DNA of 64,000 bases from Eledone cirrhosa (Eukaryota): NCBI GenBank assembly GCA_964016885.1, contig OZ024760.1:30380001-30444000 (forward strand). Direction: 5' to 3'. Of this stretch, positions 1 to 59,863 are shown piece by piece; the first letter of the stretch is position 1, and each line of letters opens with the position of its first letter. The translations under genes and the position numbers were made by a program. The notes beneath the pieces are model-generated. The model was not told the origin of the DNA and ran no database searches. It was given only the letters and a program-made list of their open reading frames with translations.

Positions 1-377
1 GTGTAGTGTAATCTAATATAATGTAATGTAATATAATGTAATGTGTAATGTAATGTAATGTAATGTAACGTGTAATGTAATGTAATGTAATGTAATGTGT
101 AATGTAAAGTAATGTAATGTAATGTAATGTGTAATGTAATGTAATGTAATGTAATGTAATGTGTAATGTAATGTAACTTAATGTAATGTAATGTAATGTA
201 ATTTAATGTGTGATGTGATGTAATGTAATGTAATGTAATGTGTAATGTAATGTGTAATGTAATGTGTAATGTAATGTAATGTATTGTAATGTAATGTAAT
301 TGTTTCTAATTTAGGCACAAGGTCAGCAATTACCCTGTGCATTACTGGTACTTTATTTTATCGACACCGTAAGGATG

Positions 378-381
378 AAAA
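378..381 (-). terminator. Possible Pol III T4 terminator inside the SINE (representative)
   Basis: Minus strand GCTTTTCA (+ strand TGAAAAGC) is about 105 nt from the 5' end and is present in all 17 copies. T4 is the minimal metazoan Pol III stop signal. Confidence 0.4.
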
Positions 382-399
382 GCAAAGTCAACCTCGGTG

Positions 400-411
400 G
401 GATTTGAACTC
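400..411 (-). promoter_or_regulatory. Pol III B box (representative; same offset in all copies)
   Basis: GAGTTCAAATCC matches the GTTCRANNC core and lies 51 nt downstream of the A box. Confidence 0.8.
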
Positions 412-462
412 AGATCGTAAAGGGACGTAACTATGTGGGAAAGCATGGCGTCCGACCCTCTA

Positions 463-474
463 CCGATACTGCCA
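463..474 (-). promoter_or_regulatory. Pol III type-2 internal promoter A box (representative; same offset in all copies)
   Basis: TGGCAGTATCGG lies about 10 nt inside the 5' end (GGCGG at 484) and resembles TRGCNNARYGG. Copy 4 has TGTCAG instead of TGGCAG. Confidence 0.7.
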
Positions 475-3295
475 ATCCACCGCCGTTTGTAATGTAATGT
501 AATGTAATGTAATGTGTAATGTAATGTAATGTAATGTGTAATGTAATGTAATGTAATGTAATGTAATGTAATGTAATGTTTAATGTAATGTAATGTAATG
601 TAATTTAATGTAATGTAATGTAATGTTTAACGTAATGTAATGTAATGTAATGTAATTTTTAATGTAATGTAATGTAATGTAATGTAATGTAACGTAATGT
701 AATGTAATGTAATGTAATGCAATGTAATGTAATGTAATGAAATGTAATGTAATGTGTAATGTAATGTAGTGTAATGTAATGTAATGTAATGAAATGTAAT
801 GTAATGTGTAATGTAATGTAATGTAATGTAATGTAATGTAATGTGTAATGTAATGTAATGTAATGTGTAATGTAATGTAATGTAATGTAATATGTAATGT
901 AAGGTAATGTTTAATGTAATGTAATGTAATGTAATGTAATGTAATGTGTAATATAATGTAATGTAATGTAATGTAATATAATGTAATATAATGTAATGTA
1001 TAATGTAATGTAATGTAATGTAATGCAATGTGTAATGTAATGTAATGTAATGTAATGTAATGTAATGTAATGTAATGTAATGTAATGTAATGTAATGTAA
1101 TGTGTAATGTAATGTAATGTAATGTGTAATGTAATGTAATGTAATGTATAATGTAATGTAATGTAATGTAACTTAATGTAATGTCATGTGTAATGTAATG
1201 TAATGTAATGTAATGTGTAATGTAATGTAATGTAATGTAATGTAATGTGTAATGTAATGTAATGTAATATAATGTTTAATGTAATGTAACGTAATGTAAT
1301 GTAATGTAATGTGTAATGTAATGTAATGTAATGTAATGTAATGTAATGTAATGTAATGTAATGTAATGTGCAATGTAATGTAATGTAATGTAATGTAATG
1401 TAATGTAATGTAATGTGTAATGTGTAATGTAATTTAATGAAATGTAATGTAATGTAATTTAATGTAATGTAATGTTATGTAATGTAATGTAATGTAATGT
1501 AATGTAATCTAATGTTTAATGCAATGTAATGTAATGTAATGTGTAATATAATGTAATGTAATGTAATGTAATTTAATATAATGTAATGTGTAATGTAATG
1601 TAATGTAATGTAATGTAATGTAATGCAATGTGTAATGTAATGTAATGTAATGTAATGTAATGTGTAATGTAATGTAATGTAATGTGATGTAATGTGTAAT
1701 GTAATGTAATGTAATATAATGTTTAATGTAATGTAATGTAATGTAATGTATTGTAATGTGTAACGTAAAGTAATGTAATGTAATGTAATGTGTAATGTAA
1801 TGTAATGTGTAATGTAATGTAATGTAATGTAATGTACTGTGTAATGTAATGTAACTTAATGTAATGTAATGTAATGTAATGTGTAATGTAATGTAATGTA
1901 ATGTAATGTAATGTAATGTAATGTAATGTGTAATGTAATGTAATGTAATGTAATGTGTAATGTAATGTAATGTAATGTGTAATGTAATGTAATGTAATGT
2001 GTAATGTAATGTAATGTAATGTAATGTGTAATGTAATGTAATGTAATGTGTAATGTAATGTAATGTAATGTAATGTGTAATGTAATGTAATGCAATGTAA
2101 TGTAATGTGTAATGTAATGTAATGTAATGTGTAGTGTAATGTAATATAATGTAATGTAATGTAATGTAATGTAATGTAATGTAATGTGTAATGTAATGTA
2201 ACTTAATGTAATGTAATGTAATGTAATGTAATGTAATGTAATGTAATGTAATGTAATGTAATGTGTAATGTAATGTAATGTAATGTAATGTAATATAATG
2301 TGCAATGTAATGTAAGGTAATGTTATGTAATGTAATGTAATGTAATGTAATGTAATGTAATGTAATGTTTAATGCAATGTAATGTAATGTAATGTGTAAT
2401 ATAATGTAATGTAATGTAATGTAATTTAATATAATGTAATGTGTAATGTAATGTAATGTAATGTAATGTAATGCAATGTGTAATGTAATGTAATGTAATG
2501 TAATGTAATGTGTAATGTAATGTAATGTAATGTGATGTAACGTGTAATGTAATGTAATGTAATATAATGTTTAATGTAATGTAATGTAATGTATTGTAAT
2601 GTGTAACGTAAAGTAATGTAATGTAATGTAATGTGTAATGTAATGTAATGTGTAATGTAATGTAATGTAATGTGTAATGTAATGTAACTTAACGTAATGT
2701 AATGTAATGTAATGTAATGTAATGTGTAATGTAATGTAATGTAATGTAATGTGTAATGTAATGTAATGTAATGTAATGTGTAATGTAATGTAATGTAATG
2801 TGTAATGTAATGTAATGTGTAATGTAATGTAATGTAATGTAATGTGTAATGTAATGTAATGTAATGTGTAATGTAATGTAATGTAATGTAATGTGTAATG
2901 TAATGTAATGCAATGTAATGTAATGTGTAATGTAATGTAATGTAATGTGTAGTGTAATGTAATATAATGTAATGTAATGTAATATAATGTAATGTGTAAT
3001 GTAATGTAATGTAATGTAACGTGTAATGTAATGTAATGTAATGTAATGTGTAATGTAATGTAATGTAATGTGTAATGTAATGTAACGTAAAGTAATGTAA
3101 TGTAATGTAATGTGTAATGTAATGTAATGTGTAATGTAATGTAATGTAATGTAATGTAATGTGTAATGTAATGTAACTTAATGTAATGTAATGTAATGTA
3201 ATGTGTGATGTGATGTGATGTAATGTAATGTAATGTGTAATGTAATGTGTAATGTAATGTGTAATATAATGTAATGTATTGTAATGTAATGTAAT

Positions 3296-3483
3296 TGTTT
3301 CTAATTTAGGCACAAGGTCAGCAATTACCCTGTGCATTACTGGTACATTATTTTATCGACACCGTAAGGATGAAAAGCAAAGTCAACCTCGGTGGGATTT
3401 GAACTCAGATCGTAAAGGGACGTAACTATGCTGGAAAGCATGGCGTCCGACCCTCTACCGATACTGCCAAACCACCGCCGTTT
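3296..3483 (-). mobile_element. tRNA-derived SINE copy 2 (H2)
   Basis: Same 188-bp element. Markers GTACATT, GACACCG, GCCAAACC. Confidence 0.85.
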
Positions 3484-6400
3484 GTAATGTAATGTAATGT
3501 AATGTAATGTAATGTTTAATGTAATGTAATGTAATGTAATGTAATGTAATGTAATGTAATGTAATGTGTAATGTAATGTAATGTGATGAAAATGTAATGT
3601 AATATGTAATGTAATGTGTAATATAATGTAATGTGTAATGTAATGTAATGTAATGTAATGTAATGTAATGTAATGTGTAATGTAATGTAATGTAATGTAA
3701 TGTAATGTAATGTAATGTAATGTAATGTAATGTAATGTTTAATGTAATGTAATGTAATGTAATGTAATGTAATGTAACGTAATGAAATGTAATGTAATGT
3801 AATGTAATGTAATTTTTAATGTAATGTAATGTAATGTAATGTAATGTAATGTAATGTAGTGTACTGTAATGTAATGAAATGTAATGCAATGTAATGTAAT
3901 GTGCAATGTAATGTAGTGTAATGTAATGTAACGTAATGAAATGTAATGTATTGTGTAATGTAATGTAATGTAATGTAATGTGTAATGTAATGTAATGTAA
4001 TGTGTAATGTAGTGTAATGTAATGTAATATGTAATGTAAGGTAATGTTTAATGTAATGTAATGTAATGTAATGTAATTTGTAATATAATGTAATGTAATG
4101 TAATGTAATATAATATAATATAATGTAATGTATAATGTAATGTAATGTAATGTAATGTAATGCAATGTGTAATGTAATGTAATGTAATGTAATTTAATGT
4201 AATGTCATGTAATGTAACTTAATGTAATGTCATGTGTAATGTAATGTAATGTAATGTGTAATGTAATGTAATGTAATGTAATGTAATGTGTAATGTAATG
4301 TAATATAATGTTCAATGTAATGTAACGTAATTCTAATGTAATGTAATGTGTAATGTAATGTAATGTAATGTAATGTAATGTAATGTAATGTAATGTGCAA
4401 TGTAATGTAATGTAATGTAATGTGTAATGTAATGTAATGTAATGTAATGTAATGTAATGTAATGTGTAATGTGTAATGTAATTTAATGAAACGTAATGTA
4501 ATGCAATGTAATGTAATGTAATGTAATGTAACGTAATGTAATGTTTAATGTAATGTAATGTAATGTAATGTGTAATATAATGTAATGTAATGTAATGTAA
4601 TTTAATATAATGTAACGTGTAATGTAATGTAATGTAATGTAATGTAATGTGTAATGTAATGTAATGTAATGTAATGTAATGTAATGTAATGTGTAATGTG
4701 TAATGTAATATAATGTGTAATGTAATGTAATGTAATGTAATGTAATGTAATGTTATGTAATGTAATGTAATGTAATGTTTAATGTAATGTAATGTAATGT
4801 GTAATATAATGTAATGTAATGTAATGTAATTTAATATAATGTAATGTGTAAAGTAATGTAATGTAATGTAATGTAATGTAATGCAATGTGTAATGTAATG
4901 TAATGTAATGTAATGTAATGTAATGTGTAGTGTAATGTAATGTGTAATGTAATGTAATGTAACGTAATGTAATGTAATATAATGTAATGTGTAATGTAAT
5001 GTAATGTAATGTAATGTGTAATGTAATGCAATGTAATGTGTTATGTAATGTAATGTAATGTAATGAAAATGTAATGTAATGTGTAATGTAATGTGTAATA
5101 TAATGTAATGTGTAATGTAATGTAATGTAATGTAATGTAATGTGTAATGTAATGTAATGTAATGTAATGTAATGCAATGTAATGTAATGTAATGTAATGT
5201 AATGTTTAATGTAATGTAATGTAATGTAATGTAATGTAATGTAATGTAATGTAATGTTTAATGTAATGTAATGTAATGTAATGTAATTTTTAATGTAATG
5301 TTATGTAATGTAATGTAATGTAATGTAATGTAATGTAGTGTACTGTAATGTAATGAAATGTAATGTAATGTGTAATGTAATGTAGTGTAATGTAATGTAA
5401 TGTAATGAAATGTAATGTAATGTAATGTAATGTAATGTAATGTAATGTAATGTAATGTAATGTGTAATGTAATGTAATGTAATGTGTAATGTAATGTAAT
5501 GTAATGTAATGTAATATGTAATGTAAGGTAATGTTTAATGTAATGTAATGTAATGTAATGTAATGTAATGTGTAATATAATGTAATGTAATGTAATGTAA
5601 TATAATGTAATATAATGTAATGTATAATGTAATGTAATGTAATGTAATGCAATGTGTAATGTAATGTAATGTAATGTAATGTAATGTGTAATGTAATGTA
5701 ATGTAATGTGTAATGTAATGTAATGTAATGTGTAATGTAATGTAATGTAATGTAACTTAATGTAACATCATGTGTAATGTAATGAAATGTAATGTAATGT
5801 GTAATGTAATGTAATGTAATGTAATGTAATGTAATGTAATGTAATGTAATGTGTAATGTAATGTAATGTAATGTAATGTAATATAATGTTTAATGTAATG
5901 AAATGTAATGTAATGTAATGTAATGTAATGTTATGTAATGTAATGTAATGTAATGTAATGTAATGTAATGTAATGTAATGTAATGTAATGTAATGTAATG
6001 TGTAATGTAATGTAATGTAATGTAATGTAATGTAATGTGTAATGTAATGTAATGTAATGTAATGTAATGTAATGTAATGTGTAACGTAAAGTAATGTAAT
6101 GTAATGTAATGTGTAATGTAATGTAATGTGTAATGTAATGTAATGTAATGTAATGTAATGTGTAATGTAATGTAACTTAATGTAATGTAATGTAATGTAA
6201 TGTAATGTAATGTGTAATGTAATGTAATGTAATGTAATGTGTAATGTAATGTAATGTAATGTAATGTGTAATGTAATGTAATGTAATGTGTAATGTAATG
6301 TAATGTAATGTGTAATGTAATGTAATGTAATGTAATGTGTAATGTAATGTAATGTAATGTGTAATGTAATGTAATGTAATGTAATGTGTAATGTAATGTA

Positions 6401-6793
6401 ATGCAATGTAATGTAATGTGTAATGTAATGTAATGTAATGTGTAGTGTAATGTAATATAATGTAATGTAATGTAATATAATGTAATGTGTAATGTAATGT
6501 AATGTAATGTAACGTGTAATGTAATGTAATGTAATGTAATGTGTAATGTAATGTAATGTAATATGTAATGTAATGTAACGTAAAGTAATGTAATGTAATG
6601 TAATGTGTAATGTAATGTAATGTGTAATGTAATGTAATGTAATGTAATGTAATGTGTAATGTAATGTAACTTAATGTAATGTAATGTAATGTAATGTGTG
6701 ATGTGATGTGATGTAATGTAATGTAATGTAATGTGTAATGTAATGTGTAATGTAATGTGTAATGTAATGTAATGTATTGTAATGTAATGTAAT

Positions 6794-6981
6794 TGTTTCT
6801 AATTTAGGCACAAGGTCAGCAATTACCCTGTGCATTACTGGTACATTATTTTATCGACACCGTAAGGATGAAAAGCAAAGTCAACCTCGGTGGGATTTGA
6901 ACTCGGATCGTAAAGGGACGTAACTATGCTGGAAAGCATGGCGTCCGACCCTCTACCGATACTGCCAAACCACCGCCGTTT
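6794..6981 (-). mobile_element. tRNA-derived SINE copy 3 (H2 plus private SNP)
   Basis: Markers GTACATT, GCCAAACC, private ACTCGGAT. Confidence 0.85.
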
Positions 6982-9900
6982 GTAATGTAATGTAATGTAA
7001 TGTAATGTAATGTTTAATGTAATGTAATGTAATGTAATGTAATGTAATGTGTAATGTAATGTAATGTGATGAAAATGTAATGTAATATGTAATGTAATGT
7101 GTAATATAATGTAATGTGTAATGTAATGTAATGTAATGTAATGTAATGTAATGTAATGTAATGTGTAATGTAATGTAATGTAATGTAATGTAATGTAATG
7201 TAATGTAATGTAATGTAATGTAATGTAATGTTTAATGTAATGTAATGTAATGTAATGTAATGTAATGTAACGTAATAAAATGTAATGTAATGTAATGTAA
7301 TGTAATTTTTAATGTAATGTAATGTAATGTAATGTAATGTAATGTAATGTAGTGTACTGTAATGTAATGAAATGTAATGCAATGTGTAATGTAATGTAGT
7401 GCAATGTAATGTAACGTAAAGAAATGTAATGTATTGTGTAGTGTAATGTAATGTAATGTAATGTAATGTAATGTGTAATGTAATGTAATGTAATGTGTAA
7501 TGTAATGTAATGTAATGTAATGTAATATGTAATGTAAGGTAATGTTTAATGTAATGTAATGTAATGTAATGTAATTTGTAATATAATGTAATGTAATGTA
7601 ATGTAATATAATATAATATAATGTAATGTATAATGTAATGTAATGTAATGTAATGCAATGTGTAATGTAATGTAATGTAATGTAATTTAATGTAATGTAA
7701 TGTAATGTAATGTAATGTGTAATGTAATGTAATGTAATGTGTAATGTAATGTAATGTAATGTAATGTAATGTGTAATGTAATGTAATATAATGTTTAATG
7801 TAATGTAACGTAATTCTAATGTAATGTAATGTGTAATGTAATGTAATGTAATGTAATGTAATGTAATGTAATGTAATGTAATGTAATGTGCAATGTAATG
7901 TAATGTAATGTAATGTGTAATGTAATGTAATGTAATGTAATGTAATGTAATGTAATGTGTAATGTGTAATGTAATTTAATGAAACGTAATGTAATGCAAT
8001 GTAATGTAATGTAATATAATGTAACGTAATGTAATGTTTAATGTAATGTAATGTAATGTAATGTGTAATATAATGTAATGTAATGTAATGTAATTTAATA
8101 TAATGTAACGTGTAATGTAATGTTATGTAATGTAATGTAATGTGTAATGTAATGTAATGTAATGTAATGTAATGTAATGTGTAATGTGTAATGTAATATA
8201 ATGTGTAATGTAATGTAATGTAATGTAATGTAATGTAATGTAATGTTATGTAATGTAATGTAATGTAATGTTTAATGTAATGTAATGTAATGTGTAATAT
8301 AATGTAATGTAATGTAATTTAATATAATGTAATGTGTAAAGTAATGTAATGTAATGTAATGTAATGTAATGCAATGTGTAATGTAATGTAATGTAATGTA
8401 ATGTAATGTAATGTGTAATGTAATGTAATGTGTAATGTAATGTAATGTAACGTAATGTAATGTAATATAATGTAATGTGTAATGTAATGTAATGTAATGT
8501 AATGTGTAATGTAATGCAATGTAATGTGTAATGTAATGTAATGTAATGAAAATGTAATGTAATGTGTAATGTAATGTGTAATATAATGTAATGTGTAATG
8601 TAATGTAATGTAATGTAATGTAATGTAATGTAATGTGTAATGTAATGTAATGTAATGTAATGTAATGCAATGTAATGTAATGTAATGTAATGTTTAATGT
8701 AATGTAATGTAATGTAATGTAATGTAATGTAATGTAATGTTTAATGTAATGTAATGTAATGTAATGTAATTTTTAATGTAATGTAATGTAATGTAATGTA
8801 ATGTAATGTAATGTAATGTAGTGTACTGTAATGTAATGAAATGTAATGTAATGTGTAATGTAATGTAGTGTAATGTAATGTAATGTAATGAAATGTAATG
8901 TAATGTGTAATGTAATGTAAAGTAATGTAATGTAATGTAATGTAATGTAATGTGTAATGTAATGTAATGTAATGTGTAATGTAATGTAATGTAATGTAAT
9001 ATGTAATGTAAGGTAATGTTTAATGTAATGTAATGTAATGTAATGTAATGTAATGTGTAATATAATGTAATGTAATGTAATGTAATATAATGTAATATAA
9101 TGTAATGTATAATGTAATGTAATGTAATGTAATGCAATGTGTAATGTAATGTAATGTAATGTAATGTAATGTAATGTAATGTGTAATGTAATGTAATGTA
9201 ATGTGTAATGTAATGTAATGTAATGTGTAATGTAATGTAATGTAATGTAACTTAATGTAACATCATGTGTAATGTAATGAAATGTAATGTAATGTGTAAT
9301 GTAATGTAATGTAATGTAATGTGTAATGTAATGTAATGTAATATAATGTTTAATATAATGTAACGTAATGTAATGTAATGTAATGTAATGTAATGTAATG
9401 TAATGTAATGTGCAATGTAATGTAATGTAATGTAATGTAATGTGTAATGTAATGTAATGTAATGTAATGTAATGTAATGTAATGTAATGTAATGTAATGT
9501 AATGTGTAATGTGTAATGTAATTTAATGAAATGTAATGTAATGTAATGTAATGTAATGTAATGCAACGTAATGTAATGTAATGTGTAATGTAATATAATG
9601 TAATCTAATGTAATGTAATGTAATGTAATGTGTAATGTAATGTAATGTAATGTAATGTAATATAATGTTTAATGTAATGAAATGTAATGTAATGTAATGT
9701 AATGTAATGTAATGTAATGTAATGTAATGTTATGTAATGTAATGTAATGTAATGTAATGTAATGTAATGTAATGTAATGTAATGTAATGTGTAATGTAAT
9801 GTAATGTAATGTAATGTAATGTAATTTGTAATGTAATGTAATGTAATGTAATGTAATGTAATGTAATGTAATGTAATGTAATGTAATGTAATGTAATGTA

Positions 9901-12001
9901 ATGTAACGTAATGTAATGTAATGTAATGTAATATGTGATGTAATGTAATGTAATGTAATGTAATATGTGATGTAATGTAATGTAATGTAATTTAATGTAA
10001 TGTCTAATGTAATGTAATGTAATGTAATGTAATGTAATGTAATGTAATGTGTAATGTAATGTAATGTAATGTAATGTGTAATGTAATGTAATGTAATGTA
10101 ATGTGTAATGTAATGTTAAGTAATGTAATGTGTAATGTAATGTAATGTAATGTAATGTAATGTGTCATGTAGTGTAACGTAATGTAATGTAATGTAATGT
10201 AATATGTAATGTAATGTAATGTAATGTAATGTAATGTAATGTAATGTAATGTAATGTAATGTAATGTGTAATGTGTAATGTAATGTAATGTAATGTGTAA
10301 TGTAATGTAATGTAATGTAATGTGTAATGTAATGTAATGTAATGTAATGTAACGTGCAATGTAATGTAATGTAATGTGTAATGTAAAGTAATGTATAATG
10401 TAATGTAATGTAATGTAATGTAACGTGCAATGTAATGTAATGTAATATAATGTGTAATGTAATGTAATGTAATGTAATGTAATGTAACGTTTAATGTAAT
10501 GTAAAGTAATGTAATGTAATGTAATATAATGTAATGTAATGTAATGTAATGCAATGTAATGTAATGTAATGTAATGAAATGTAATGTGTAATGTGTAATG
10601 TGTAATGCAATGTAATGTAACGTAATGTAATGTAATGTAATGTAATGTAATGTAATGTAATGTAATGTGTAATGTAATGTGATGTAATGTAATGTAATGT
10701 AATGTAATGTAATGTAATGTAATGCAATGTAATGTAATGTAATGTAATGTAATGTAATGTAATGTAATGTGTAATGTAATGTAATGTGTAATGTAATGTA
10801 ACGTTATGTAATGTAATGTATAATGTAATGTAATGTAATGTGTAATGTAATGTAATGTAATGTGTAATGTATTGTAATGTAATGTAATGGGAAATGTAAT
10901 GTAATGTAATGTAATGTAATGTAATGCAATGTAATGTGTAATGTAATGTAATGTAATGTAATGTAATGTGCAATGTAATGTAATGTGTAATGTAATGTAA
11001 TGTATAATGTAATGTAATGTAATGTGTAATGTAATGTAATGTAATGTGTAATGTAATGCAATGTAATGTAATGTAATGTAATGCAATGTAATGTAATGCA
11101 ATGTAATGCAATGCAATGTAATGTAATGTAATGAAAGTAATGTGTAATGTGTAATGCAATGTAATGTAACGTAATGTAATGTGTAATGTAATGCAATGTA
11201 ATGTAATGTAATGTAATGTAATGTAATGTAATGTAATGTGTAATGTAATGTAATGTAATGTAATGTAATGTGTAATGTAATGTAATGTAATGTAATGTGT
11301 AATGTAATGTAATGTAATGTAATGTAATGTAATGTGTAATGTAATGTAATGTAATGTAATGTGTGATGTAATGTAATGTGTAATGTAATGTAATGTTATG
11401 TAATGTAATGTATAATGTAATGTAATGTAATGTGTAATGTAATGTAATGTAATGTGTAATGCATTGTAATGTAATGTAATGTAATGTAATGTAATGTAAT
11501 GTAATGTGTAATGTAATGTAATGTAATGTAATGTGTAATGTAATGTAATGTAATATAATGCAATGTGCAATGTAATGTAATGTATAATGTAATGTAATGT
11601 AATGTGTAATGTAATGTAATGTAATGTGTAATGTAATGTAATGTAATGTGTAATGTAATGTAATGTAATGTGTAGCGTAATGTAATATAATGTAATGTAA
11701 TATAATGTAATGTGTAATGTAATGTAATGTAATGTAACGTGTAATGTAATGTAATGTAATGTAATGTAATGTAATGTGTAATGTAATGTAATGTAATGTA
11801 ATGTAATGTGTAATGTAATGTAACGTAAAGTAATGTAATGTAATGTAATGTGTAATGTAATGTAATGTAATGTAATGTAATGTAATGTGTAATGTAATGT
11901 AACTTAATGCAATGTAATGTAATGTAATGTGTAATGTAATGTGTAATGTAATGTGTAATGTAATGTGTAATGTAATGTAATGTATTGTAATGTAATGTAA
12001 T

Positions 12002-12189
12002 TGTTTCTAATTTAGGCACAAGGTCAGCAATTACCCTGTGCATTACTGGTACTTTATTTTATCGACACCGTAAGGATGAAAAGCAAAGTCAACCTCGGTG
12101 GGATTTGAACTCAGATCGTAAAGGGACGTAACTATGTGGGAAAGCATGGCGTCCGACCCTCTACCGATACTGACAATCCACCGCCGTTT
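12002..12189 (-). mobile_element. tRNA-derived SINE copy 4 (H1 plus private A-box SNP)
   Basis: Markers GTACTTT, TATGTGGGA, private ACTGACAAT. Confidence 0.85.
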
Positions 12190-16043: not shown

Positions 16044-16231
16044 TGTTTCTAATTTAGGCACAAGGTCAGCAATTACCCTGTGCATTACTGGTACATTATT
16101 TTATCGACACCGTAAGGATGAAAAGCAAAGTCAACCTCGGTGGGATTTGAACTCAGATCGTAAAGGGACGTAACTATGCTGGAAAGCATGGCGTCCGACC
16201 CTCTACCGATACTGCCAATCCACCGCCGTTT
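16044..16231 (-). mobile_element. tRNA-derived SINE copy 6 (H3)
   Basis: Reads identical to copy 5. Confidence 0.85.
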
Positions 16232-44799: not shown

Positions 44800-47700
44800 A
44801 AGTAATATTTAATGTAATGTAATGTAATGTAATGTAATGTAATGTAATGTGTAATATAATGTAATGTAATGTAATGTAATATAATGTAATATAATGTAAT
44901 GTATAATGTAATGTAATGTAATGTAATGCAATGTGTAATGTAATGTAATGTAATGTAATGTAATGTAATGTAATGTAATGTAATGTAATGTGTAATGTAA
45001 TGTAATGTAATGTGTAATGTAATGTAATGTAAAGTGTAATGTAATGTAGTGTAATGTAATGTAACTTAATGTAATGTCATGTGTAATGTAATGTAATGTA
45101 ATGTAATGTGTAATGTAATGTAATGTAATGTGTAATGTAATGTAATGTAATAAAATGTTTAATGTAATGTAACGTAATGTAATGTAATGTAATGTAATGT
45201 AATGTAATGTGCAATGTAATGTAATGTAATGTAATGTAATGTGTAATGTAATGTAATGTAATGTAATGTAATGTGTAATGTGTAATGTAATTTAATGAAA
45301 TGTAATGTAATGTAATGTAATGTAATGTAATGTAATGTAATGTAACGTAATGTAATGTAATGTAATGTGTAATGTAATGTAATGTAATGTAATGTAATGT
45401 AATGTGTAATGTAATGTAATGTAATGTAACGTAATATAACGTGTAATGTAATGTAATGTAATGTAATGTAATGTTATGTAATGTAATGTAATGTAATGTA
45501 ATGTGTAATGTAATGTAATGTAATGTAATGTAATGTAATGTAATGTAATGTGTAATGTAATGTAATGTGTAATGTAATGTAACGTAATGTAATGTAATGT
45601 AATGTAATGTAATATGTAATGTAATGTAATGTAATGTAATTTAATGTAATGTCTAATGTAATGTAATGTAATGTAATGTAATGTAATGTGTAATGTAATG
45701 TAATGTTAAGTAATGTAATGTGTAATGTAATGTAATGTAATATAATGTAATGTGTAATGTAATGTAATGTAATAAAATGTTTAATGTAATGTAACGTAAT
45801 GTAATGTAATGTAATGTAATGTAATGTAATGTGCAATGTAATGTAATGTAATGTAATGTAATGTGTAATGTAATGTAATGTAATGTAATGTAATGTGTAA
45901 TGTGTAATGTAATTTAATGAAATGTAATGTAATGTAATGTAATGTAACGTAATGTAATGTAATGTAATGTGTAATGTAATGTAATGTAATGTAATGTAAT
46001 GTAATGTGTAATGTAATGTAATGTAATGTAACGTAATATAACGTGTAATGTAATGTAATGTAATGTAATGTAATGTTATGTAATGTAATGTAATGTAATG
46101 TAATGTGTAATGTAATGTAATGTAATGTAATGTAATGTAATGTAATGTAATGTGTAATGTAATGTAATGTGTAATGTAATGTAACGTAATGTAATGTAAT
46201 GTAATGTAATGTAATATGTAATGTAATGTAATGTAATGTAATTTAATGTAATGTCTAATGTAATGTAATGTTATGTAATGTAATGTAATGTAATGTAATG
46301 TGTAATGTAATGTAATGTGTAACGTAACGTAATGTGATGTAATGTAATGTAATGTAATGTAATGTAATGTAATGTAATGTAATGTAATGTAATGTAATGT
46401 AATGTAATGTGTAATGTAATGTAATGTAATGTAATGTAATGTGTAATGTAATGTAATGTAATCTAATGTAATGTGTAATGTAATGTAATGTAATGTAATG
46501 TAATGTAATGTAATGTAATGTAATGTGTAACGTAATGTAATGTAATGTAATGTAACGTAATGTAATGTAATGTAATGTAATGTAATGTAATGTGTAATGT
46601 AATGTAATGTAATGTAATGTAATGTAAAGTAATGTAATGAAATGTAATGTGTAATGTGTAATGCAATGTAATGTAACGTAATGTAATGTAATGTAATGTA
46701 ATGTAATGTAATGTAATGTAATGTAATGTAATGTAATGTAATGTAATGTAATGTAATGTAATGTAATGTAATGTAATGTAATGTGTAATGTAATGTAATG
46801 TAATGTGTAATGTAATGTAATGTAATGTAATATGTAATGTAAAGTAATATTTAATGTAATGTAATGTAATGTAATGTAATGTAATGTGTAATATAATGTA
46901 ATGTAATGTAATGTAATATAATGTAATATAATGTAATGTATAATGTAATGTAATGTAATGTAATGCAATGTGTAATGTAATGTAATGTAATGTAATGTAA
47001 TGTAATGTAATGTGTAATGTAATGTAATGTAATGTGTAATGTAATGTAATGTAAAGTGTAATGTAATGTAGTGTAATGTAATGTAACTTAATGTAATGTC
47101 ATGTGTAATGTAATGTAATGTAATGTAACGTGTAATGTAATGTAATGTAATGTGTAATGTAATGTAATGTAATAAAATGTTTAATGTAATGTAACGTAAT
47201 GTAATGTAATGTAATGTAATGTAATGTAATGTGCAATGTAATGTAATGTAATGTAATGTAATGTGTAATGTAATGTAATGTAAAGTAATGTAATGTAATG
47301 TGTAATGTGTAATGTAATTTAATGAAATGTAATGTAATGTAATGTAATGTAATGTAATGTAATGTAATGTAACGTAATGTAATGTAATGTAATGTGTAAT
47401 GTAATGTAATGTAATGTAATGTAATGTAATGTAATGTAATGTGTAATATAATGTAATGTAATGTAACGTAATATAACGTGTAATGTAATGTAATGTAATG
47501 TAATGTAATGTTATGTAATGTAATGTAATGTAATGTGTAATGTAATGTAATGTAATGTAATGTAATGTAATGTGTAATGTAATGTAATGTGTAATGTAAT
47601 GTGTAATGTAATGTAACGTAATGTAATGTAATGTAATGTAATGTAATATGTAATGTAATGTAATGTAATGTAATTTAATGTAATGTCTAATGTAATGTAA

Positions 47701-50700
47701 TGTAATGTAATGTAATGTAATGTGTAATGTAATGTAATGTTAAGTAATGTAATGTGTAATGTAATGCAATGTAATATAATGTAATGTGTCATGTAGTGTA
47801 ACGTAATGTAATGTAATGTAATGTAATATGTAATGTAATGTAATGTGTAATGTAATGTAATGTAATGTAATGTGTAATGTAATGTAATGTAATGTAATGT
47901 AATGTAATGTAATGTGTAATGTAATGTAATGTAATGTAATGTGTAATGTAATGCAATGTGTAACGTAACGTAATGTAATGTAATGTAATGTAATGTAATG
48001 TAATGTAATGTAATGTAATGTAATGTAATGTGTAATGTAATGTAATGTAATGTAATGTAATGTGTAATGTAATGTAATGTAATCTAATGTAATGTGTAAT
48101 GTAATGTAATGTAATGTAATGTAATGTAATGTAATGTAATGTAATGTAATGTGTAACGTAATGTAATGTAATGTAATGTAATGTAATGTAATGTAATGTA
48201 ATGTGTAATGTAATGTAATGTAATGTAATGTAATGTAATGTAATGTAATGTAATGTAATGTAATGTAATGTAATGTAATGTGTAATGTAATGTAATGTAA
48301 TGTGTAATGTAATGTAATGTAATGTAATATGTAATGTAAAGTAATATTTAATGTAATGTAATGTAATGTAATGTAATGTAATGTGTAATATAATGTAATG
48401 TAATGTAATGTAATATAATGTAATATAATGTAATGTATAATGTAATGTAATGTAATGTAATGCAATGTGTAATGTAATGTAATGTAATGTAATGTAATGT
48501 AATGTAATGTGTAATGTAATGTAATGTAATGTGTAATGTAATGTAATGTAAAGTGTAATGTAATGTAGTGTAATGTAATGTAACTTAATGTAATGTCATG
48601 TGTAATGTAATGTAATGTAATGTAACGTGTAATGTAATGTAATGTAATGTGTAATGTAATGTAATGTAATAAAATGTTTAATGTAATGTAACGTAATGTA
48701 ATGTAATGTAATGTAATGTAATGTAATGTGCAATGTAATGTAATGTAATGTAATGTAATGTGTAATGTAATGTAATGTAATGTAATGTAATGTAATGTGT
48801 AATGTGTAATGTAATTTAATGAAATGTAATGTAATGTAATGTAATGTAATGTAATGTAATGTAATGTAACGTAATGTAATGTAATGTAATGTGTAATGTA
48901 ATGTAATGTAATGTAATGTAATGTAATGTAATGTAATGTGTAATATAATGTAATGTAATGTAACGTAATATAACGTGTAATGTAATGTAATGTAATGTAA
49001 TGTAATGTTATGTAATGTAATGTAATGTAATGTAATGTAATGTGTAATGTAATGTAATGTAATGTAATGTAATGTAATGTGTAATGTAATGTAATGTGTA
49101 ATGTAATGTGTAATGTAATGTAACGTAATGTAATGTAATGTAATGTAATGTAATATGTAATGTAATGTAATGTAATGTAATTTAATGTAATGTCTAATGT
49201 AATGTAATGTAATGTAATGTAATGTAATGTGTAATGTAATGTAATGTTAAGTAATGTAATGTGTAATGTAATGCAATGTAATATAATGTAATGTGTCATG
49301 TAGTGTAACGTAATGTAATGTAATGTAATGTAATATGTAATGTAATGTAATGTGTAATGTAATGTAATGTAATGTAATGTGTAATGTAATGTAATGTAAT
49401 GTAATGTAATGTAACGTGTAATGTAATGTAATGTAATGTAATGTGTAATGTAATGTAATGTGTAACGTAACGTAATGTAATGTAATGTAATGTAATGTAA
49501 TGTAATGTAATGTAATGTAATGTAATGTAATGTGTAATGTAATGTAATGTAATGTAATGTAATGTGTAATGTAATGTAATGTAATGTAATGTAATCTAAT
49601 GTAATGTGTAATGTAATGTAATGTAATGTAATGTAATGTAATGTAATGTAATGTAATGTAATGTAATGTGTAACGTAATGTAATGTAATGTAATGTAATG
49701 TAATGTAATGTAATGTAATGTGTAATGTAATGTAATGTAATGTAATGTAATGTAATGTAATGTAATGTAATGTAATGTAATGTAATGTGTAATGTAATGT
49801 AATGTAATGTAATGTAATGTAATGTAATGCAATGCAATGTAATGTAATGTAATGTAATGTAATGTAATGTAATGTAATGTAATGTAATGTGTAATGTGTA
49901 ATGTAATGTAATGTAATGTAATGTGTATTGTAATGTAATGTAATGTGTAATGTAATGTAATGTAATGTGTAATGTAATGTAATGTGTAATGTAATGTAAT
50001 GTGTAATGTAATGTAATGTTATGTAATGTAATGTATAATGTAATGTAATGTAATGTAATGTGTAATGTAATGTAATGTTATGTAATGTAATGTATAATGT
50101 AATGTAATGTAATGTAATATGTAATGTAATGTAATGTGTAATGTAGTGTAATGTAATGTAATGTAATATGTAATGTAATGTAATGTAATGTAATGTGTAA
50201 TGTAATGTAATGTAATGTGATGTAACGTGCAATGTAATGTAATGTAATGTAATGTGTAATGTAATGTAATGTAATCTAATGTAATGTGTAATGTAATGTA
50301 ATGTAATGTAATGTAATGTAATGTAATGTAATGTAATGTAATGTGTAACGTAATGTAATGTAATGTAATGTAATGTAATGTAATGTAATGTAATGTGTAA
50401 TGTAATGTAATGTAATGTAATGTAATGTAATGTAATGTAATGTAATGTAATGTAATGTAATGTAATGTAATGTGTAATGTAATGTAATGTAATGTGTAAT
50501 GTAATGTAATGTAATGTAATATGTAATGTAAAGTAATATTTAATGTAATGTAATGTAATGTAATGTAATGTAATGTGTAATATAATGTAATGTAATGTAA
50601 TGTAATATAATGTAATATAATGTAATGTATAATGTAATGTAATGTAATGTAATGCAATGTGTAATGTAATGTAATGTAATGTAATGTAATGTAATGTAAT

Positions 50701-52000
50701 GTGTAATGTAATGTAATGTAATGTGTAATGTAATGTAATGTAAAGTGTAATGTAATGTAGTGTAATGTAATGTAACTTAATGTAATGTCATGTGTAATGT
50801 AATGTAATGTAATGTAACGTGTAATGTAATGTAATGTAATGTGTAATGTAATGTAATGTAATAAAATGTTTAATGTAATGTAACGTAATGTAATGTAATG
50901 TAATGTAATGTAATGTAATGTGCAATGTAATGTAATGTAATGTAATGTAATGTGTAATGTAATGTAATGTAATGTAATGTAATGTAATGTGTAATGTGTA
51001 ATGTAATTTAATGAAATGTAATGTAATGTAATGTAATGTAATGTAATGTAATGTAATGTAATGTAACGTAATGTAATGTAATGTAATGTGTAATGTAATG
51101 TAATGTAATGTAATGTAATGTAATGTAATGTAATGTGTAATATAATGTAATGTAATGTAACGTAATATAACGTGTAATGTAATGTAATGTAATGTAATGT
51201 AATGTTATGTAATGTAATGTAATGTAATGTAATGTAATGTGTAATGTAATGTAATGTAATGTAATGTAATGTAATGTGTAATGTAATGTAATGTGTAATG
51301 TAATGTGTAATGTAATGTAACGTAATGTAATGTAATGTAATGTAATGTAATATGTAATGTAATGTAATGTAATGTAATTTAATGTAATGTCTAATGTAAT
51401 GTAATGTAATGTAATGTAATGTAATGTGTAATGTAATGTAATGTTAAGTAATGTAATGTGTAATGTAATGCAATGTAATATAATGTAATGTGTCATGTAG
51501 TGTAACGTAATGTAATGTAATGTAATGTAATATGTAATGTAATGTAATGTGTAATGTAATGTAATGTAATGTAATGTGTAATGTAATGTAATGTAATGTA
51601 ATGTAATGTAATGTAATGTGTAATGTAATGTAATGTAATGTAATGTGTAATGTAATGTAATGTGTAACGTAACGTAATGTAATGTAATGTAATGTAATGT
51701 AATGTAATGTAATGTAATGTAATGTAATGTAATGTAATGTGTAATGTAATGTAATGTAATGTAATGTAATGTGTAATGTAATGTAATGTAATCTAATGTA
51801 ATGTGTAATGTAATGTAATGTAATGTAATGTAATGTAATGTAATGTAATGTAATGTAATGTGTAACGTAATGTAATGTAATGTAATGTAATGTAATGTAA
51901 TGTAATGTAATGTGTAATGTAATGTAATGTAATGTAATGTAATGTAAAGTAATGTAATGAAATGTAATGTGTAATGTGTAATGCAATGCAATGTAATGTA
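44800..52000. repeat. SINE-free array of ~1.5-2.2-kb higher-order satellite units (ends approximate)
   Basis: AGTAATATTT recurs at 44801, 46843, 48340 and 50532. GTCTAAT recurs at 45651, 46253, 47685, 49192 and 51389. Confidence 0.75.
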
Positions 52001-53552
52001 ATGTAATGTAATGTAATGTAATGTAATGTAATGTAATGTAATGTAATGTAATGTAATGTAATGTAATGTAATGTAATGTGTAATGTAATGTAATGTAATG
52101 TAATGTAATGTAATGTAATGCAATGCAATGTAATGTAATGTAATGTAATGTAATGTAATGTAATGTAATGTAATGTGTAATGTGTAATGTAATGTAATGT
52201 AATGTAATGTGTATTGTAATGTAATGTAATGTGTAATGTAATGTAATGTAATGTGTAATGTAATGTAATGTGTAATGTAATGTAATGTGTAATGTAATGT
52301 AATGTTATGTAATGTAATGTATAATGTAATGTAATGTAATGTAATGTGTAATGTAATGTAATGTTATGTAATGTAATGTATAATGTAATGTAATGTAATG
52401 TAATATGTAATGTAATGTAATGTGTAATGTAGTGTAATGTAATGTAATGTAATATGTAATGTAATGTAATGTAATGTAATGTGTAATGTAATGTAATGTA
52501 ATGTGATGTAACGTGCAATGTAATGTAATGTAATGTAATGTGTAATGTAATGTAATGTAATGTAATGTAATGCAATGTAATGTAATGTAATGTAATGTAA
52601 TGTAATGTAATGTAATGTAATGTAATGTAATGTGTAATGTAATGTAATGTAATATAATGTAATGTAATGTAATGTAATGTGTAATGTAATGTAATGTAAT
52701 TTAATGTGCAATGTAATGTGATGTAATGTAATGTGTAATGTAAAGTAATGTATAATGTAATGTAATGTAATGTAATGTAATGTGTAATGTAATGTAATGT
52801 AATGTAATGTAATGTGTAATGTAATGTAATGTGTAATGTAATGTAATGTAATGTAATGTGTAATGTAATGTAATGTAATGTAATGTAATGTAATGTAATG
52901 TAATGTGTAATGTAATGCAATGTAATGTAATGTAATGCAATGTAATGTAATGTAATGTAATGTAATGTAATGTAATGTAATGTAATGAAATGTGATGTGT
53001 AATGTGTAATGCAATGTAATGTAACGTAACGTAATGTAATGTAATGTAATGTAATGTAATGTAATGTAATGTAATGTAATGTAATGTAATGTAATGTAAT
53101 GTGTAATGTAATGTAATGTAATGTAATGTAATGTGTAATGTAATGTAATGTAATGTAATGTAATGTGTAATGTAATGTAATGTAATGTAATGTAATGTGT
53201 AATGTAATGTAATGTAATGTAATGTGTAATGTAATGTAATGTAATGTAATGTAATGTGTAATGTAATGTAATGTAATGTAATGTAATGTATAATGTAATG
53301 TAATGTAATGTAATGTGTAATGTAATGTAATGTAATGTGTAATGTATTGTAATGTAATGTAATGTGCAATGTAATGTAATGTAATGTAATGTATAATGTA
53401 ATGTAATGTAATGTGTAATGTAATGTAATGTAATGTAATGTGTAATGTAACGTAATGTAATGTAATGTGTAATGTAATGTAATGTAATGTAATGTGTAAT
53501 GTAATGTAATGTAATGTAATGTGTAATGTAATGTATTGTAATGTAATGTAAT

Positions 53553-53740
53553 TGTTTCTAATTTAGGCACAAGGTCAGCAATTACCCTGTGCATTACTGG
53601 TACTTTATTTTATCGACCGCGTAAGGATGAAAAGCAAAGTCAACCTCGGTGGGATTTGAACTCAGATCGTAAAGGGACGTAACTATGCTGGAAAGCATGG
53701 CGTCCGTCCCTCTACCGATACTGCCAATCCACCGCCGTTT
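53553..53740 (-). mobile_element. tRNA-derived SINE copy 15 (H4)
   Basis: Markers GTACTTT, GACCGCG, TCCGTCCC. Confidence 0.85.
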
Positions 53741-56576
53741 GTAATGTAATGTAATGTAATGCAATGTAATGTAACGTAATGTAATGTAATGTAATGTAAT
53801 GTAATGTAATGTAATGTGTAATGTAATGTGATGTAATGTAATGTAATGTAATGTAACGTAATGTAATGTAATGTAATGTAATGTAATGTAATGTAGTGAA
53901 AATGTAATGTAATGTGTAATGTAATGTGTAACGTAATGTAATGTGTAATGTAATGTAATGTAATGTAATGTAATGTAATGTAATGTAATGTGTAATGTAA
54001 TGTAATGTAATGTAATGTTTAATGTAATGTAACGTAATGTAATGTAATGTAATGTTTAATGTAATGTAATGTAATGTAACGTGCAATGTAATGTAATGTA
54101 ATGTAATGTGTAATGTAAAGTAATGTATAATGTAATGTAATGTAATGTAATGTGTAATGTAATGTAATGTAATGTAAAGTAATGTAATGTAATGTAATGT
54201 AATGTAATGTGTAATGTAATGTAATGTAAAGTAATGTAATGTGTAATGTAACGTAATGTAATGTAATGTAATGTGTAATGTAATATAATGTAATGTAATG
54301 TAATGTGTAATGTAATGTAATGTGTAATGTAATGTAATGTAATGTAATGTAATGTAATGTAATGTGTAATGTAATGTAATGTAATGTAATGTGTAATGTA
54401 ATGTAATGTAATGTAATGTAATGTGTAATGTAATGTAATGTGTAATGTAATGTAATGTAATGTAATGTAATGTAATGTAATGTAATGTAATGTGTAATGT
54501 AATGTAATGTAATGTGTAATGTAATGTAATGTAATGTAATGTAATGTAATGTAATGAAATGTAATGTGTAATGTGTAATGCAATGTAATGTAACGTAATG
54601 TAATGTAATGTAATGTAATTTAATGTAATGTAATGTAATGTAATGTAATGTAATGTGTAATGTAAAGTAATGTATAATGTAATGTAATGTAATGTAATGT
54701 GTAATGTAATGTAATGTAATGTAATGTAATGTAATGTGTAATGTAATGTAATGTAATGTAATGTGTAATGTAACGTAATGTAATGTAGTGTAATGTGTAA
54801 TGTAATGTAATGTGTAATGTAATGTAATGTAATGTAATGTAATGTGTAATGTAATGTAATGTAATGTAATGTGTAATGTAATGTAATGTAATGTAATGTA
54901 ATGTAATGAAATGTAATGTGTAATGTGTAATGCAATGTAATGTAACGTAATGTAATGTAATGTAATGTAATGTAATGTAATGTAATGTAATGTAATGTAA
55001 TGTAATGTAATGTAATGTAATGTAATGTAATGTAATGTAATGTAATGTAATGTGTAATGTAATGTGATGTAATGTAATGTAGTGTAATGTAATGCAATGT
55101 AATGTAATGTAATATAATGTAATGTAATGTAATGTAATGTAATGTAATGTAATGTAATGTACTGTGTAATGTAATATAATGTAATGTAATATGTAATGTA
55201 ATGTAATGTTTAATGTAATGTAATGTAATATAATGTAATATAATGTAATGTATAATGTAATGGAATGTAATGTAATGTAATGTAATGCAATGTGTAATGT
55301 AATGTAATGTAATATAATGTTTAATGTAATGTAACGTAATGTAATGTAATGTAATGTGTAATGTAATGTAATGTAATGTAATGTAATGTAATGTAATGTA
55401 ATGTAATGTGTAATGTAATGTAATGTAATGTGTAATGTAATGTAACGTAATGTAATGTGTAATGTGTAATGTAATTTAATGTAAAGTAATGTAAGGTAAT
55501 GTAATGTAATGTAACGTAATGTAATGTAATATGTAATGTAATGTAATGTAATGTAATGTAATGTAATGTAATGTAATGTAATGTAATGTAATGTAATGTA
55601 ATGTAATGTAATGTGTAATGTAATGTAATGTAATGTAATGTAATGTAATGTGTAATGTAATGTAATGTGTAATGTAATGTAATGTAATGTAATATAATGT
55701 AATATAATGTAATGTATAATGTAATGTAATGTAATGCAATGTGTAAGGTAATGTAATGTAATGTAATGTAATGTAATGTAAGGTAATGTGTAATGTGTAC
55801 TGTAATGTAATGTAAAGTAATGTAATGTGTAGTGTAATGTAATTTAATGTAATGTAGCGTAATGTGTAATGTAGTGTAATGTAATATAATGTTTAATGTA
55901 AAGTAACGTAATGTAATGTAATGTAATGTAATGTAATGTGTAATGTAATGTAATGTAATGTGTAATGTAATGTAATGTAATGTAATGTAATGTGTAATGT
56001 GTAATGTAATGTAATGTAATGTAATGTAATGTTATGTAATGTAATGTAGTGTAATGTAATGTAATGCAACGTAATATAATGTAATGTAATGTAATGTAAT
56101 GTGTAATGTAATGTAATGTAATGTGTAATGTAATGTAATGTAATGTGTAATGTAATGTAATGTAATGTGTAATGTAATGTAATGTAATGTGTAATGTAAT
56201 GTAATGTGTAATGTAATGTAATGTTATGTAATGTAATGTATAATGTAATGTAATGTAATGTAATGTAATGTAATGTGTAATGTAATGTAATGTAGTGTAA
56301 TGTATAATGTAATGTAATGTGTAATGTAATGTAATGTAATGTGTAATGTAATGTAATGTAATGTAATGTAATGTGCAATGTAATGTAATGTAATGTAATG
56401 TGTAATGTAATGTAATGTATAATGTAATGTAATGTAATGTACTGTGTAATGTAATGTAATGTAATGTAATGTGTAATGTAATGTAATGTAATGTAATGTA
56501 ATGTAATGTAATGTAATGTGTAATGTAATGTAATGTAATGTAATGTGTAATGTAATGTATCGTAATGTAATGTAAT

Positions 56577-56764
56577 TGTTTCTAATTTAGGCACAAGGTC
56601 AGCAATTACCCTGTGCATTACTGGTACTTTATTTTATCGACCCCGTAAGGATGAAAAGCAAAGTCAACCTCGGTGGGATTTGAACTCAGATCGTAAAGGG
56701 ACGTAACTATGCTGGAAAGCATGGCGTCCGACCCTCTACCGATACTGCCAATCCACCGCCGTTT
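56577..56764 (-). mobile_element. tRNA-derived SINE copy 16 (H5)
   Basis: Markers GACCCCG, flanks GTATCG and TTTGTGAT. Confidence 0.85.
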
Positions 56765-59675
56765 GTGATGTAATGTAATGTAATGTAATGTTTAATGTAA
56801 TGTAATGTAATATGTAATGTAATGTAATGTAATGAAAATGTAATATAATGTGTAATGTAATGTGTAATGTAATGCAATGTGTAATGTAATGTAATGTAAT
56901 GTAATGTAATGTGTAATGTAATGTAATGTAATGTAATGTAATGTAATGTAATGTTTAATGTAATGTAACGTAATGTAATGTAATGTAATGTTTAATGTAA
57001 TGTAATGTAACGTAACGTAATGTAATGTAATGTAATGTAATGTAATGTAATGTAATGTAATATAATGAAGTGTAATGTAATGTAATGAAATGTAATGTAA
57101 TGTGTAATGTAATGTAGTGTAGTGTAATGTAATGAAATGTAATGTAATGTAATGTAATGTAATGTAATGTAATGTAATGTAATGTAATGTAATGTAATGT
57201 AATGTGATGTAATGTAACGTGTAATGTAATGTAATGTAATGTGAAATGTAATGTAATGTAATGTAATATGTAATGTAATGTAATGTTTAATGTAATTTAA
57301 TGTAATGTAATGTAACGTGTAATATAATGTAAAGTAATGTAATGTAATGTAATATAATGTAATATAATGTAATGTCTAAAGTAATGTAATGTAATGTAAT
57401 GTAATGCAATGTGTAATGTAATGTAATGTAATGTAATGTAATGTAATGTAATGTGTAATGTAATGTAATGTAATATAATGTTTAATGTAATGTAACGTAA
57501 TGTAATGTAATGTAATGTGTAATGTAATGTAATGTAATGTAATGTAATGTAATGTGTAATGTAATGTAATGTAATGTAATGTGTAATGTAATGTAATGTA
57601 ATGTGTAATGTGTAATGTGTAATGTGTAATGTAATTTAATGTAATGTAATGTAATGTAATGTAACGTAACGTAATGTAATGTAATGTAATGTAATATAAT
57701 GTAATATAATGTAATGTATAATGTAATGTAATGTAATGTAATGCAATGTGTAATGTAATGTAATGTAATGTAATGTAATGTAATGTAATGTGTAATGTAA
57801 TGTAATGTAATGTGTAATGTAATGTAATGTAAAGTGTAATGTAATGTAGTGTAATGTAATGTAACTTAATGTAATGTCATGTGTAATGTAATGTAATGTA
57901 ATGTAACGTGTAATGTAATGTAATGTAATGTGTAATGTAATGTAATGTAATAAAATGTTTAATGTAATGTAACGTAATGTAATGTAATGTAATGTAATGT
58001 AATGTAATGTAATGTGCAATGTAATGTAATGTAATGTAATGTAATGTGTAATGTAATGTAATGTAATGTAATGTAATGTAATGTGTAATGTGTAATGTAA
58101 TTTAATGAAATGTAATGTAATGTAATGTAATGTAATGTAATGTAATGTAATGTAACGTAATGTAATGTAATGTAATGTGTAATGTAATGTAATGTAATGT
58201 AATGTAATGTAATGTAATGTGTAATATAATGTAATGTAATGTAACGTAATATAACGTGTAATGTAATGTAATGTAATGTAATGTAATGTTATGTAATGTA
58301 ATGTAATGTAATGTAATGTAATGTGTAATGTAATGTAATGTAATGTAATGTAATGTAATGTGTAATGTAATGTAATGTGTAATGTAATGTGTAATGTAAT
58401 GTAACGTAATGTAATGTAATGTAATGTAATGTAATATGTAATGTAATGTAATGTAATGTAATTTAATGTAATGTCTAATGTAATGTAATGTAATGTAATG
58501 TAATGTAATGTGTAATGTAATGTAATGTTAAGTAATGTAATGTGTAATGTAATGCAATGTAATATAATGTAATGTGTCATGTAGTGTAACGTAATGTAAT
58601 GTAATGTAATGTAATATGTAATGTAATGTAATGTGTAATGTAATGTAATGTAATGTAATGTGTAATGTAATGTAATGTAATGTAATGTAATGTAATGTAA
58701 TGTGTAATGTAATGTAATGTAATGTAATGTGTAATGTAATGTAATGTGTAACGTAACGTAATGTAATGTAATGTAATGTAATGTAATGTAATGTAATGTA
58801 ATGTAATGTAATGTAATGTGTAATGTAATGTAATGTAATGTAATGCAATGTGTAAGGTAATGTAATGTAATGTAATGTAATGTAATGTAAGGTAATGTGT
58901 AATGTGTACTGTAATGTAATGTAAAGTAATGTAATGTGTAGTGTAATGTAATTTAATGTAATGTAGCGTAATGTGTAATGTAGTGTAATGTAATATAATG
59001 TTTAATGTAAAGTAACGTAATGTAATGTAATGTAATGTGTAATGTAATGTAATGTAATGTGTAATGTAATGTAATGTAATGTAATGTAATGTAATGTGTA
59101 ATGTGTAATGTAATGTAATGTAATGTAATGTAATGTTATGTAATGTAATGTAGTGTAATGTAATGTAATGCAACGTAATATAATGTAATGTAATGTAATG
59201 TAATGTGTAATGTAATGTAATGTAATGTGTAATGTAATGTAATGTAATGTGTAATGTAATGTAATGTAATGTGTAATGTAATGTAATGTAATGTGTAATG
59301 TAATGTAATGTGTAATGTAATGTAATGTTATGTAATGTAATGTATAATGTAATGTAATGTAATGTAATGTAATGTAATGTGTAATGTAATGTAATGTAGT
59401 GTAATGTATAATGTAATGTAATGTGTAATGTAATGTAATGTAATGTGTAATGTAATGTAATGTAATGTAATGTAATGTGCAATGTAATGTAATGTAATGT
59501 AATGTGTAATGTAATGTAATGTATAATGTAATGTAATGTAATGTACTGTGTAATGTAATGTAATGTAATGTAATGTGTAATGTAATGTAATGTAATGTAA
59601 TGTAATGTAATGTAATGTGTAATGTAATGTAATGTAATGTAATGTGTAATGTAATGTATCGTAATGTAATGTAAT

Positions 59676-59863
59676 TGTTTCTAATTTAGGCACAAGGTCA
59701 GCAATTACCCTGTGCATTACTGGTACTTTATTTTATCGACCCCGTAAGGATGAAAAGCAAAGTCAACCTCGGTGGGATTTGAACTCAGATCGTAAAGGGA
59801 CGTAACTATGCTGGAAAGCATGGCGTCCGACCCTCTACCGATACTGCCAATCCACCGCCGTTT
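59676..59863 (-). mobile_element. tRNA-derived SINE copy 17 (H5)
   Basis: Reads identical to copy 16, including flanks. Confidence 0.85.

Follow-up and report, generated by a model that had tools for sequence, protein, structure and literature searches.

The 64,000-nucleotide stretch of Eledone cirrhosa DNA studied here (hereafter the window; C21:30,380,001-30,444,000, on the 35.4-Mb contig C21) contains 17 copies of a short interspersed element (SINE) separated by a satellite whose monomer is GTAAT. These 17 copies descend from one insertion. We consider it highly probable that this insertion entered a 1.3-Mb, single-locus pentamer satellite and was multiplied there, likely passively, by local duplications on the kilobase scale. 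The SINE is a neutral marker of the history of the array, not a structural unit of it.

A single founder insertion behind the window copies

A script search of the window recovers 17 SINE copies, each 188 bp long and all on one strand, with 0 on the opposite strand. The same coordinates had been given in the initial annotation, which described same-strand copies with few substitutions, and all 16 of the start-to-start spacings listed there are reproduced. Relative to the first copy, the copies carry 0-5 substitutions (pairwise mean 1.7%, maximum 3.2%), and the non-SINE remainder of the window is (TGTAA)n, with ~12,069 copies. The left flank reads GTATT or GTATC followed by three GTAAT in 17/17 copies, and the right junction reads CGCCGTTT-GT, also in 17/17. 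The initial annotation regarded both flanks as fixed; they are, however, not two separate flanks but one 17-bp target-site duplication, which accounts for both the run of exactly three GTAAT units and the right-junction TT. In copy 1, the duplication encloses a SINE body of 186 bp, read on the minus strand with its 3' end facing the left flank (Table 1).

The whole array contains 170 SINE hits, and the window's junction is common to 77 of them (hereafter the lineage). Three substitutions set the lineage apart: T36 is present in 77/77 lineage copies vs 0/87 other array copies and 0/42 dispersed copies, A81 in 70/70 vs 0/91 and 1/42, and T98 in 77/77 vs 4/90 and 1/42. In two public runs of restriction-site-associated DNA sequencing (RAD-seq) bearing the same species label, T36 accounts for at most 23/2,308 and 34/2,068 SINE reads (1.0-1.6%). 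The 17-bp target-site duplication is exact on both sides in 51/77 lineage copies and near-exact in the remainder. In a tree from which copies with fewer than 150 aligned bases were excluded and in which identical rows were merged, the lineage forms one clade with a support of 0.985 (47 distinct sequences). Because of these private substitutions, the single 17-bp target-site duplication and this clade, we assign all 77 copies to one insertion, and the earlier claim of one insertion amplified together with its satellite is sustained.

Sub-variants of the lineage (35-bp and 8-bp deletions, sets of substitutions) occupy contiguous blocks along the array, and rare 60-mers are common mainly to neighbouring 50-kb bins, as expected from local, stepwise duplication.

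Two further features of the lineage are visible along the array. At C21:29,729,489-29,786,351, seven copies with the 8-bp deletion adjoin seven copies in which the deletion has grown to 35 bp in all, forming a record of stepwise expansion. The lineage is also split by 313 kb (C21:30,067,525-30,380,300) that hold no lineage copies and just 4 other SINE hits; expansion of a SINE-free piece lying within the lineage's domain may have produced this sector.

Separate insertions share one strand

The remaining 93 array hits fall into 24 junction classes with differing 5' ends, truncations and private substitutions. Merging and splitting of the 25 junction classes gives 22 founders with an intact 3' end, the window lineage included; this count excludes one 6-copy class of internal fragments, and 15 is taken as a cautious floor. 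The array thus holds ~15-22 separate insertions, each now represented by 1 to 77 copies, in a distribution that falls from 77 through 25, 20, 10 and 8 to 1. In several founders the 15-20-bp duplication takes in a variant monomer, which marks the insertion as a separate one.

All array hits (170/170) lie on the same strand, an outcome with a chance probability of 6e-5 for 15 founders, and SINE hits in 210 kb of flanking DNA comprise 28 plus and 13 minus. Once the SINEs are masked, the ATTA count is 189 for the plus strand of the array and 214,819 for its minus strand (~1,100 times as many). The extended motif ATTAT hosts 10/22 founders, though it represents 3.4% of sites (p=1e-9), and it is also the commonest junction among dispersed copies. 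A single shared orientation would follow because the SINE appears to target ATTA(T), which is near-exclusive to one satellite strand; target preference likely fixes both the orientation and the 3' register of the array copies. Since such a preference alone would give it, orientation is uninformative in a strand-asymmetric satellite, and a shared orientation there is no evidence of common origin or function. The argument for one insertion that the initial annotation drew from shared orientation and junction does not hold in this form, as the ~15-22 separate insertions share orientation and 3' register too. In SINE density, the array (170 hits in 1.30 Mb) lies within the flanking range (41 hits in 210 kb, of which 19 are long).

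Duplicated blocks are mostly SINE-free

A seeded scan for near-exact, ungapped blocks of at least 1.2 kb yields 64 blocks, and 48 of these are SINE-free, including tandem duplications of 12.3, 4.9, 3.2 and 3.0 kb. Among the ends of SINE-bearing blocks, 0/32 fall inside a SINE and 2/32 within 100 bp of one; in a cruder test, 7.7% of block ends lie near a SINE vs 9.3% at random. SINE-free gaps reach 175, 77 and 73 kb, with gaps above 20 kb totalling 724 kb, and exact 150-mer repetition is no lower in SINE-free 50-kb bins (0.36-0.60) than in SINE-rich ones (0.14-0.65). The spacing of lineage copies runs from 638 bp to 313 kb (coefficient of variation 0.74 below 20 kb); from this spacing and from the 48/64 SINE-free blocks, no near-constant tandem unit containing the SINE emerges. 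The initial annotation had taken the true repeat unit to be the SINE plus a satellite tract, with the SINE as recurring anchor; this is contradicted by the SINE-free majority of recent duplications, by the 0/32 block ends inside a SINE and by the 724 kb of SINE-free gaps.

In summary, a dispersed tRNA-type SINE family, whose target-site duplications of 15-20 bp have ATTA(T) at their start, entered the array ~15-22 separate times, in one orientation that was presumably set by target preference acting on the strand asymmetry of ATTA. Copy numbers of 1 to 77 would then have arisen as blocks of 1-12 kb, mostly SINE-free, were duplicated, probably by unequal exchange or break-induced replication, mechanisms discussed for satellites in PMC8122249. 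The 15-22 insertions, with their 1 to 77 copies and block-wise variants, provide natural markers of turnover in a simple-sequence array, as well as locus-specific probes.

The satellite occupies one locus of the assembly

The array spans C21 ~29,659,530-30,955,860 (1.30 Mb, with no N; all sequence from 29.65 to 30.96 Mb was examined) and lies 4.4 Mb from the end of the contig. Genome-wide, 13,841/13,909 matches to (GTAAT)8, all 106 matches to forward (GTAAT)27 and 55/55 matches to a variant satellite pattern fall in the C21 array, and 67/67 matches to the window's right junction fall on C21, on a single strand. The satellite is thus one locus in this assembly, with unassembled arrays elsewhere possible. 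These four pattern counts argue against one large block per chromosome; the general centromeric architecture suggested in the initial annotation does not agree with a satellite and junction restricted to one locus of the assembly. The hit on C13 is a short microsatellite.

Monomer purity is flat along the array (0.75-0.83). The non-satellite islands listed are SINE pieces of ~200 bp or less, runs of variant monomers and one 66-bp piece at C21:30,346,515. This piece is the sole insert from outside the SINE family among the islands listed; its base composition faces the opposite way, and it presumably corresponds to the terminus of another octopus retroposon. At C21 ~30,113,900-30,165,000, a sub-domain stands out in which CAATG variant monomers form runs every 1-4 kb, a higher-order structure that is almost free of SINEs, and short pure runs of other variants (TTAAT, GAAAT and GTAAC, at C21:29,840,250, 30,324,222 and 30,324,440) point to slippage expanding single variants.

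Both array ends grade into (AATAT)n-like sequence (L090:9530-10000 and L105:5780-6080), which suggests an origin of the array from an AATAT/AATGT microsatellite. Growth of the array from a SINE tail was considered and rejected, because a 15-bp duplication flanks the right-border SINE on either side, which shows that this SINE entered a pre-existing AT-rich edge. Beyond the right array end lies a GA-rich repeat with TCTAGA words.

The SINE family and its promoter boxes

Exact matches to a 22-mer from the 3' end of the SINE number 364 in forward and 354 in reverse orientation across the 3.0-Gb genome. Thirty dispersed loci, which were picked by a 22-mer matching the 3' variant of the window lineage and so lean towards that variant, have varying 5' ends, with truncations present. 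ATTA directly follows the 3' end in 23/30 of them, and in 7/30 this ATTA opens a target-site duplication of 15-20 bp; target-site duplications are also seen in most array founders checked. The A/B-box head, dispersal in both orientations, variable 5' truncation and target-site duplications identify the SINE as tRNA-derived. Dispersed copies often stand head to tail, one just before the head of another (L039, L051 and L056; in flanking DNA, L087 and L113). ARAGORN found no whole tRNA in the SINE, and Rfam returned no SINE match below E=4.5, only chance matches. We take the element to resemble the octopus tRNA-derived SINEs OK, OR1 and OR2 in its tRNA-type head, short body and dispersal in both orientations. 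OR1 is named as a CORE-SINE in PMC4824008, and a by-eye comparison with the bivalve alignments in the supplement of that paper gave no evident match to the 66-bp Meta-domain of MetaSINEs. Contigs of two other organisms (X4 and X5) hold the SINE; they do not cover the junction and hence give no proof of its absence.

Conservation of the promoter boxes does not exceed expectation. Among lineage copies, the B box has 4 and the A box 6 distinct substitution states vs 4.8 expected per 12 bp; both boxes are exact in 120/170 array copies, and amplification has extended to lineages truncated within the B box (8 copies) or without the A box (6 copies). An internal T4 run is present in 67/77 lineage copies vs 0/42 dispersed copies and, by analogy with vertebrate rules, would likely shorten RNA polymerase III (Pol III) transcripts.

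Table 1 Features of the window (positions 1 to 64,000) with strand.
Feature	Position	Strand
(GTAAT)n pentamer satellite with variant monomers, part of the 1.30-Mb array	1..64000	+
Left copy of the founder's 17-bp target-site duplication; includes TT of the GTATT variant monomer	284..300	+
Right copy of the founder's 17-bp target-site duplication	487..503	+
SINE copy 1 (body 301-486; final 2 nt belong to the duplication)	301..488	-
SINE copy 2	3296..3483	-
SINE copy 3	6794..6981	-
SINE copy 4	12002..12189	-
SINE copy 5	14274..14461	-
SINE copy 6	16044..16231	-
SINE copy 7	17506..17693	-
SINE copy 8	19152..19339	-
SINE copy 9	23761..23948	-
SINE copy 10	29641..29828	-
SINE copy 11	33455..33642	-
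SINE copy 12	37740..37927	-
SINE copy 13	40779..40966	-
SINE copy 14	43867..44054	-
SINE copy 15	53553..53740	-
SINE copy 16	56577..56764	-
SINE copy 17	59676..59863	-
A-box-like motif of the tRNA-type head, imperfect match to the consensus	463..474	-
B-box motif, unchanged in 17/17 window copies, exact in 72/77 lineage copies	400..411	-
T4 run on the SINE sense strand, private to the lineage; may act as an internal Pol III stop	378..381	-
Near-exact block, repeated 4,285 bp downstream, SINE mid-block; ends 572 and 1,318 bp from a SINE	32883..34961	+
Near-exact SINE-free block, repeated 2,054 bp downstream	60932..62821	+

Alternative explanations

Several points weigh against passive multiplication of one founder among many. 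The founder count rests on our own grouping, some truncated classes may be deletion derivatives, and the 25-copy junction class does not form a clade in the tree. The SINE's own tail could account for part of the ATTAT excess, and the two-sided variant is seen in some founders only. Block ends are points where near-identity decays and not proven breakpoints. One lineage makes up 77 of the 170 copies, a dominance that drift could give, and the evidence for the array comes from a single assembly. The unchanged B box in 17/17 window copies is a further such point, and it also favours a functional or mechanistic anchor, by which the SINE would act either through SINE-to-SINE recombination or through a B box binding TFIIIC as a barrier. 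An anchor is also favoured by the recurrence of window copies every 1.5-9.7 kb and by two SINE variants that alternate, at a period of about 6.5 kb, in the sequence immediately to the right of the window. We nevertheless judge an anchor very unlikely, given the absence of block ends in the SINE, the SINE-free majority of blocks, the long SINE-free gaps and the irregular spacing, as well as the lack of excess box conservation and the amplification of lineages with a cut B box or no A box; its recombination form is largely refuted. It is barely credible that one active master supplied each of the 17 copies by a retrotransposition of its own into a favoured target, even though the array is a strong, strand-biased target where many separate insertions did happen. 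The 5' end is the same in all lineage copies, as is the 17-bp duplication, which takes in a rare variant monomer; the T23+T36 pattern has 30 occurrences in the array and 3 elsewhere in the genome, the variants lie in contiguous blocks, and the T4 run, absent from the dispersed copies, would likely shorten transcripts. The copy number could also be an assembly artefact, the over-expansion of a few copies, as low-complexity arrays are error-prone and this one lacks spanning reads. The heritable, block-wise differences between copies make this highly improbable. Weak evidence to the same effect is the depth of the right-junction contigs, 254-331 vs 3.5-17.6 for the listed contigs of 300-1,600 nt (runs X2 and X3), from what is likely the same sample as the assembly, with a satellite side below 31 nt and a depth that is not a copy number. 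Coverage of the junctions in the RAD-seq runs (X21 and X22) is minimal, so these runs do not show the junction in other individuals.

The array might also be a chromosome-specific centromere or pericentromere, in which the SINEs would still be passengers and the satellite would have a role in segregation. We regard this as unlikely. The satellite is absent from the assembly's other chromosomes, a search of the 60-mer matrix for layers arranged mirror-symmetrically about a young core found none, purity is flat, and complex retroelement islands are not present. Large simple satellites are, moreover, often non-centromeric, as in human Yq12 and in Table 1 of PMC6516634, which lists centromeric, pericentric and heterochromatic satellite sites. 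A centromere would nonetheless be in keeping with a 1.3-Mb array without N, 4.4 Mb from the contig end, with the near-absence of inserts outside the SINE family, with local homogenisation, and with the simple satellites that flank Drosophila centromeres (PMC6516634). We found no cephalopod centromere sequence in the literature, in which most subscription papers are not searchable, and no published account of this array in the literature searched; the main text of a 325-genome centromere atlas preprint, whose supplements were unsearched, does not contain octopus, Eledone, SINE, mollusc or cephalopod. Put in its boldest form, and with equal reserve, the (AATGT)n block might be a chromosome-specific centromere of an octopod, its ~20 same-strand insertions being barcodes that would make satellite turnover readable. 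The findings would matter more if CENP-A maps to the C21 array.

Comparison with known systems

Centromeres of S. pombe have tRNA/B-box barriers. The C21 SINEs contain a B-box motif as well; unlike these barriers, they are not placed at array borders, show no excess box conservation and are retroposed copies.

In the SINE-derived satellites of squamates (sSat; PMC10702118), as in the C21 array, SINE sequence has been amplified in tandem fashion by DNA-level processes. The sSat unit, however, is a 70-290-nt SINE part arranged head to tail, whereas in the C21 array the monomer is GTAAT, and whole SINEs are spaced by 0.6 kb to tens of kb within a pentamer unrelated to them, of which the SINE is not the seed. 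The G2/Jockey-3 islands of Drosophila melanogaster (PMC6516634) are similar in that sequence of a non-long-terminal-repeat retroelement lies inside simple pentamer satellites. They differ in being CENP-A-bound islands of complex DNA on every centromere, in contrast to the isolated 186-bp elements of a single locus known from sequence alone. No element shared by all centromeres is seen here, since the junction falls 67/67 on C21, with unassembled arrays possible, and no complex retroelement island occurs among the non-satellite islands listed.

The nearest known case is that of the AluY elements associated with human HSat1B/DYZ2 and HSat3 on Yq12 and the acrocentric arms (bioRxiv 10.1101/2022.12.01.518724), and passive amplification of a retroelement within a satellite is thus already known. 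On Yq12, the HSat1B unit contains an AluY fragment whose copies make up one clade that has expanded locally, and pieces of Alu are interspersed with the pentamer-derived HSat3. The likenesses to the C21 array are a satellite-borne SINE insertion multiplied by local expansion into one clade, a pentamer-derived satellite nearby, and iterative tandem duplications attributed to unequal exchange; we also count among them that the Yq12 satellites are heterochromatic and not a centromere. In contrast to HSat1B, which has a fixed three-part unit of ~2.5 kb and an Alu fragment that is 20% diverged, the C21 array has no fixed unit, and its SINE is full length, young (5% from the dispersed consensus) and flanked by a readable target-site duplication. 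The C21 array further differs in its many separate same-strand insertions and in that most of its duplications are without a SINE.

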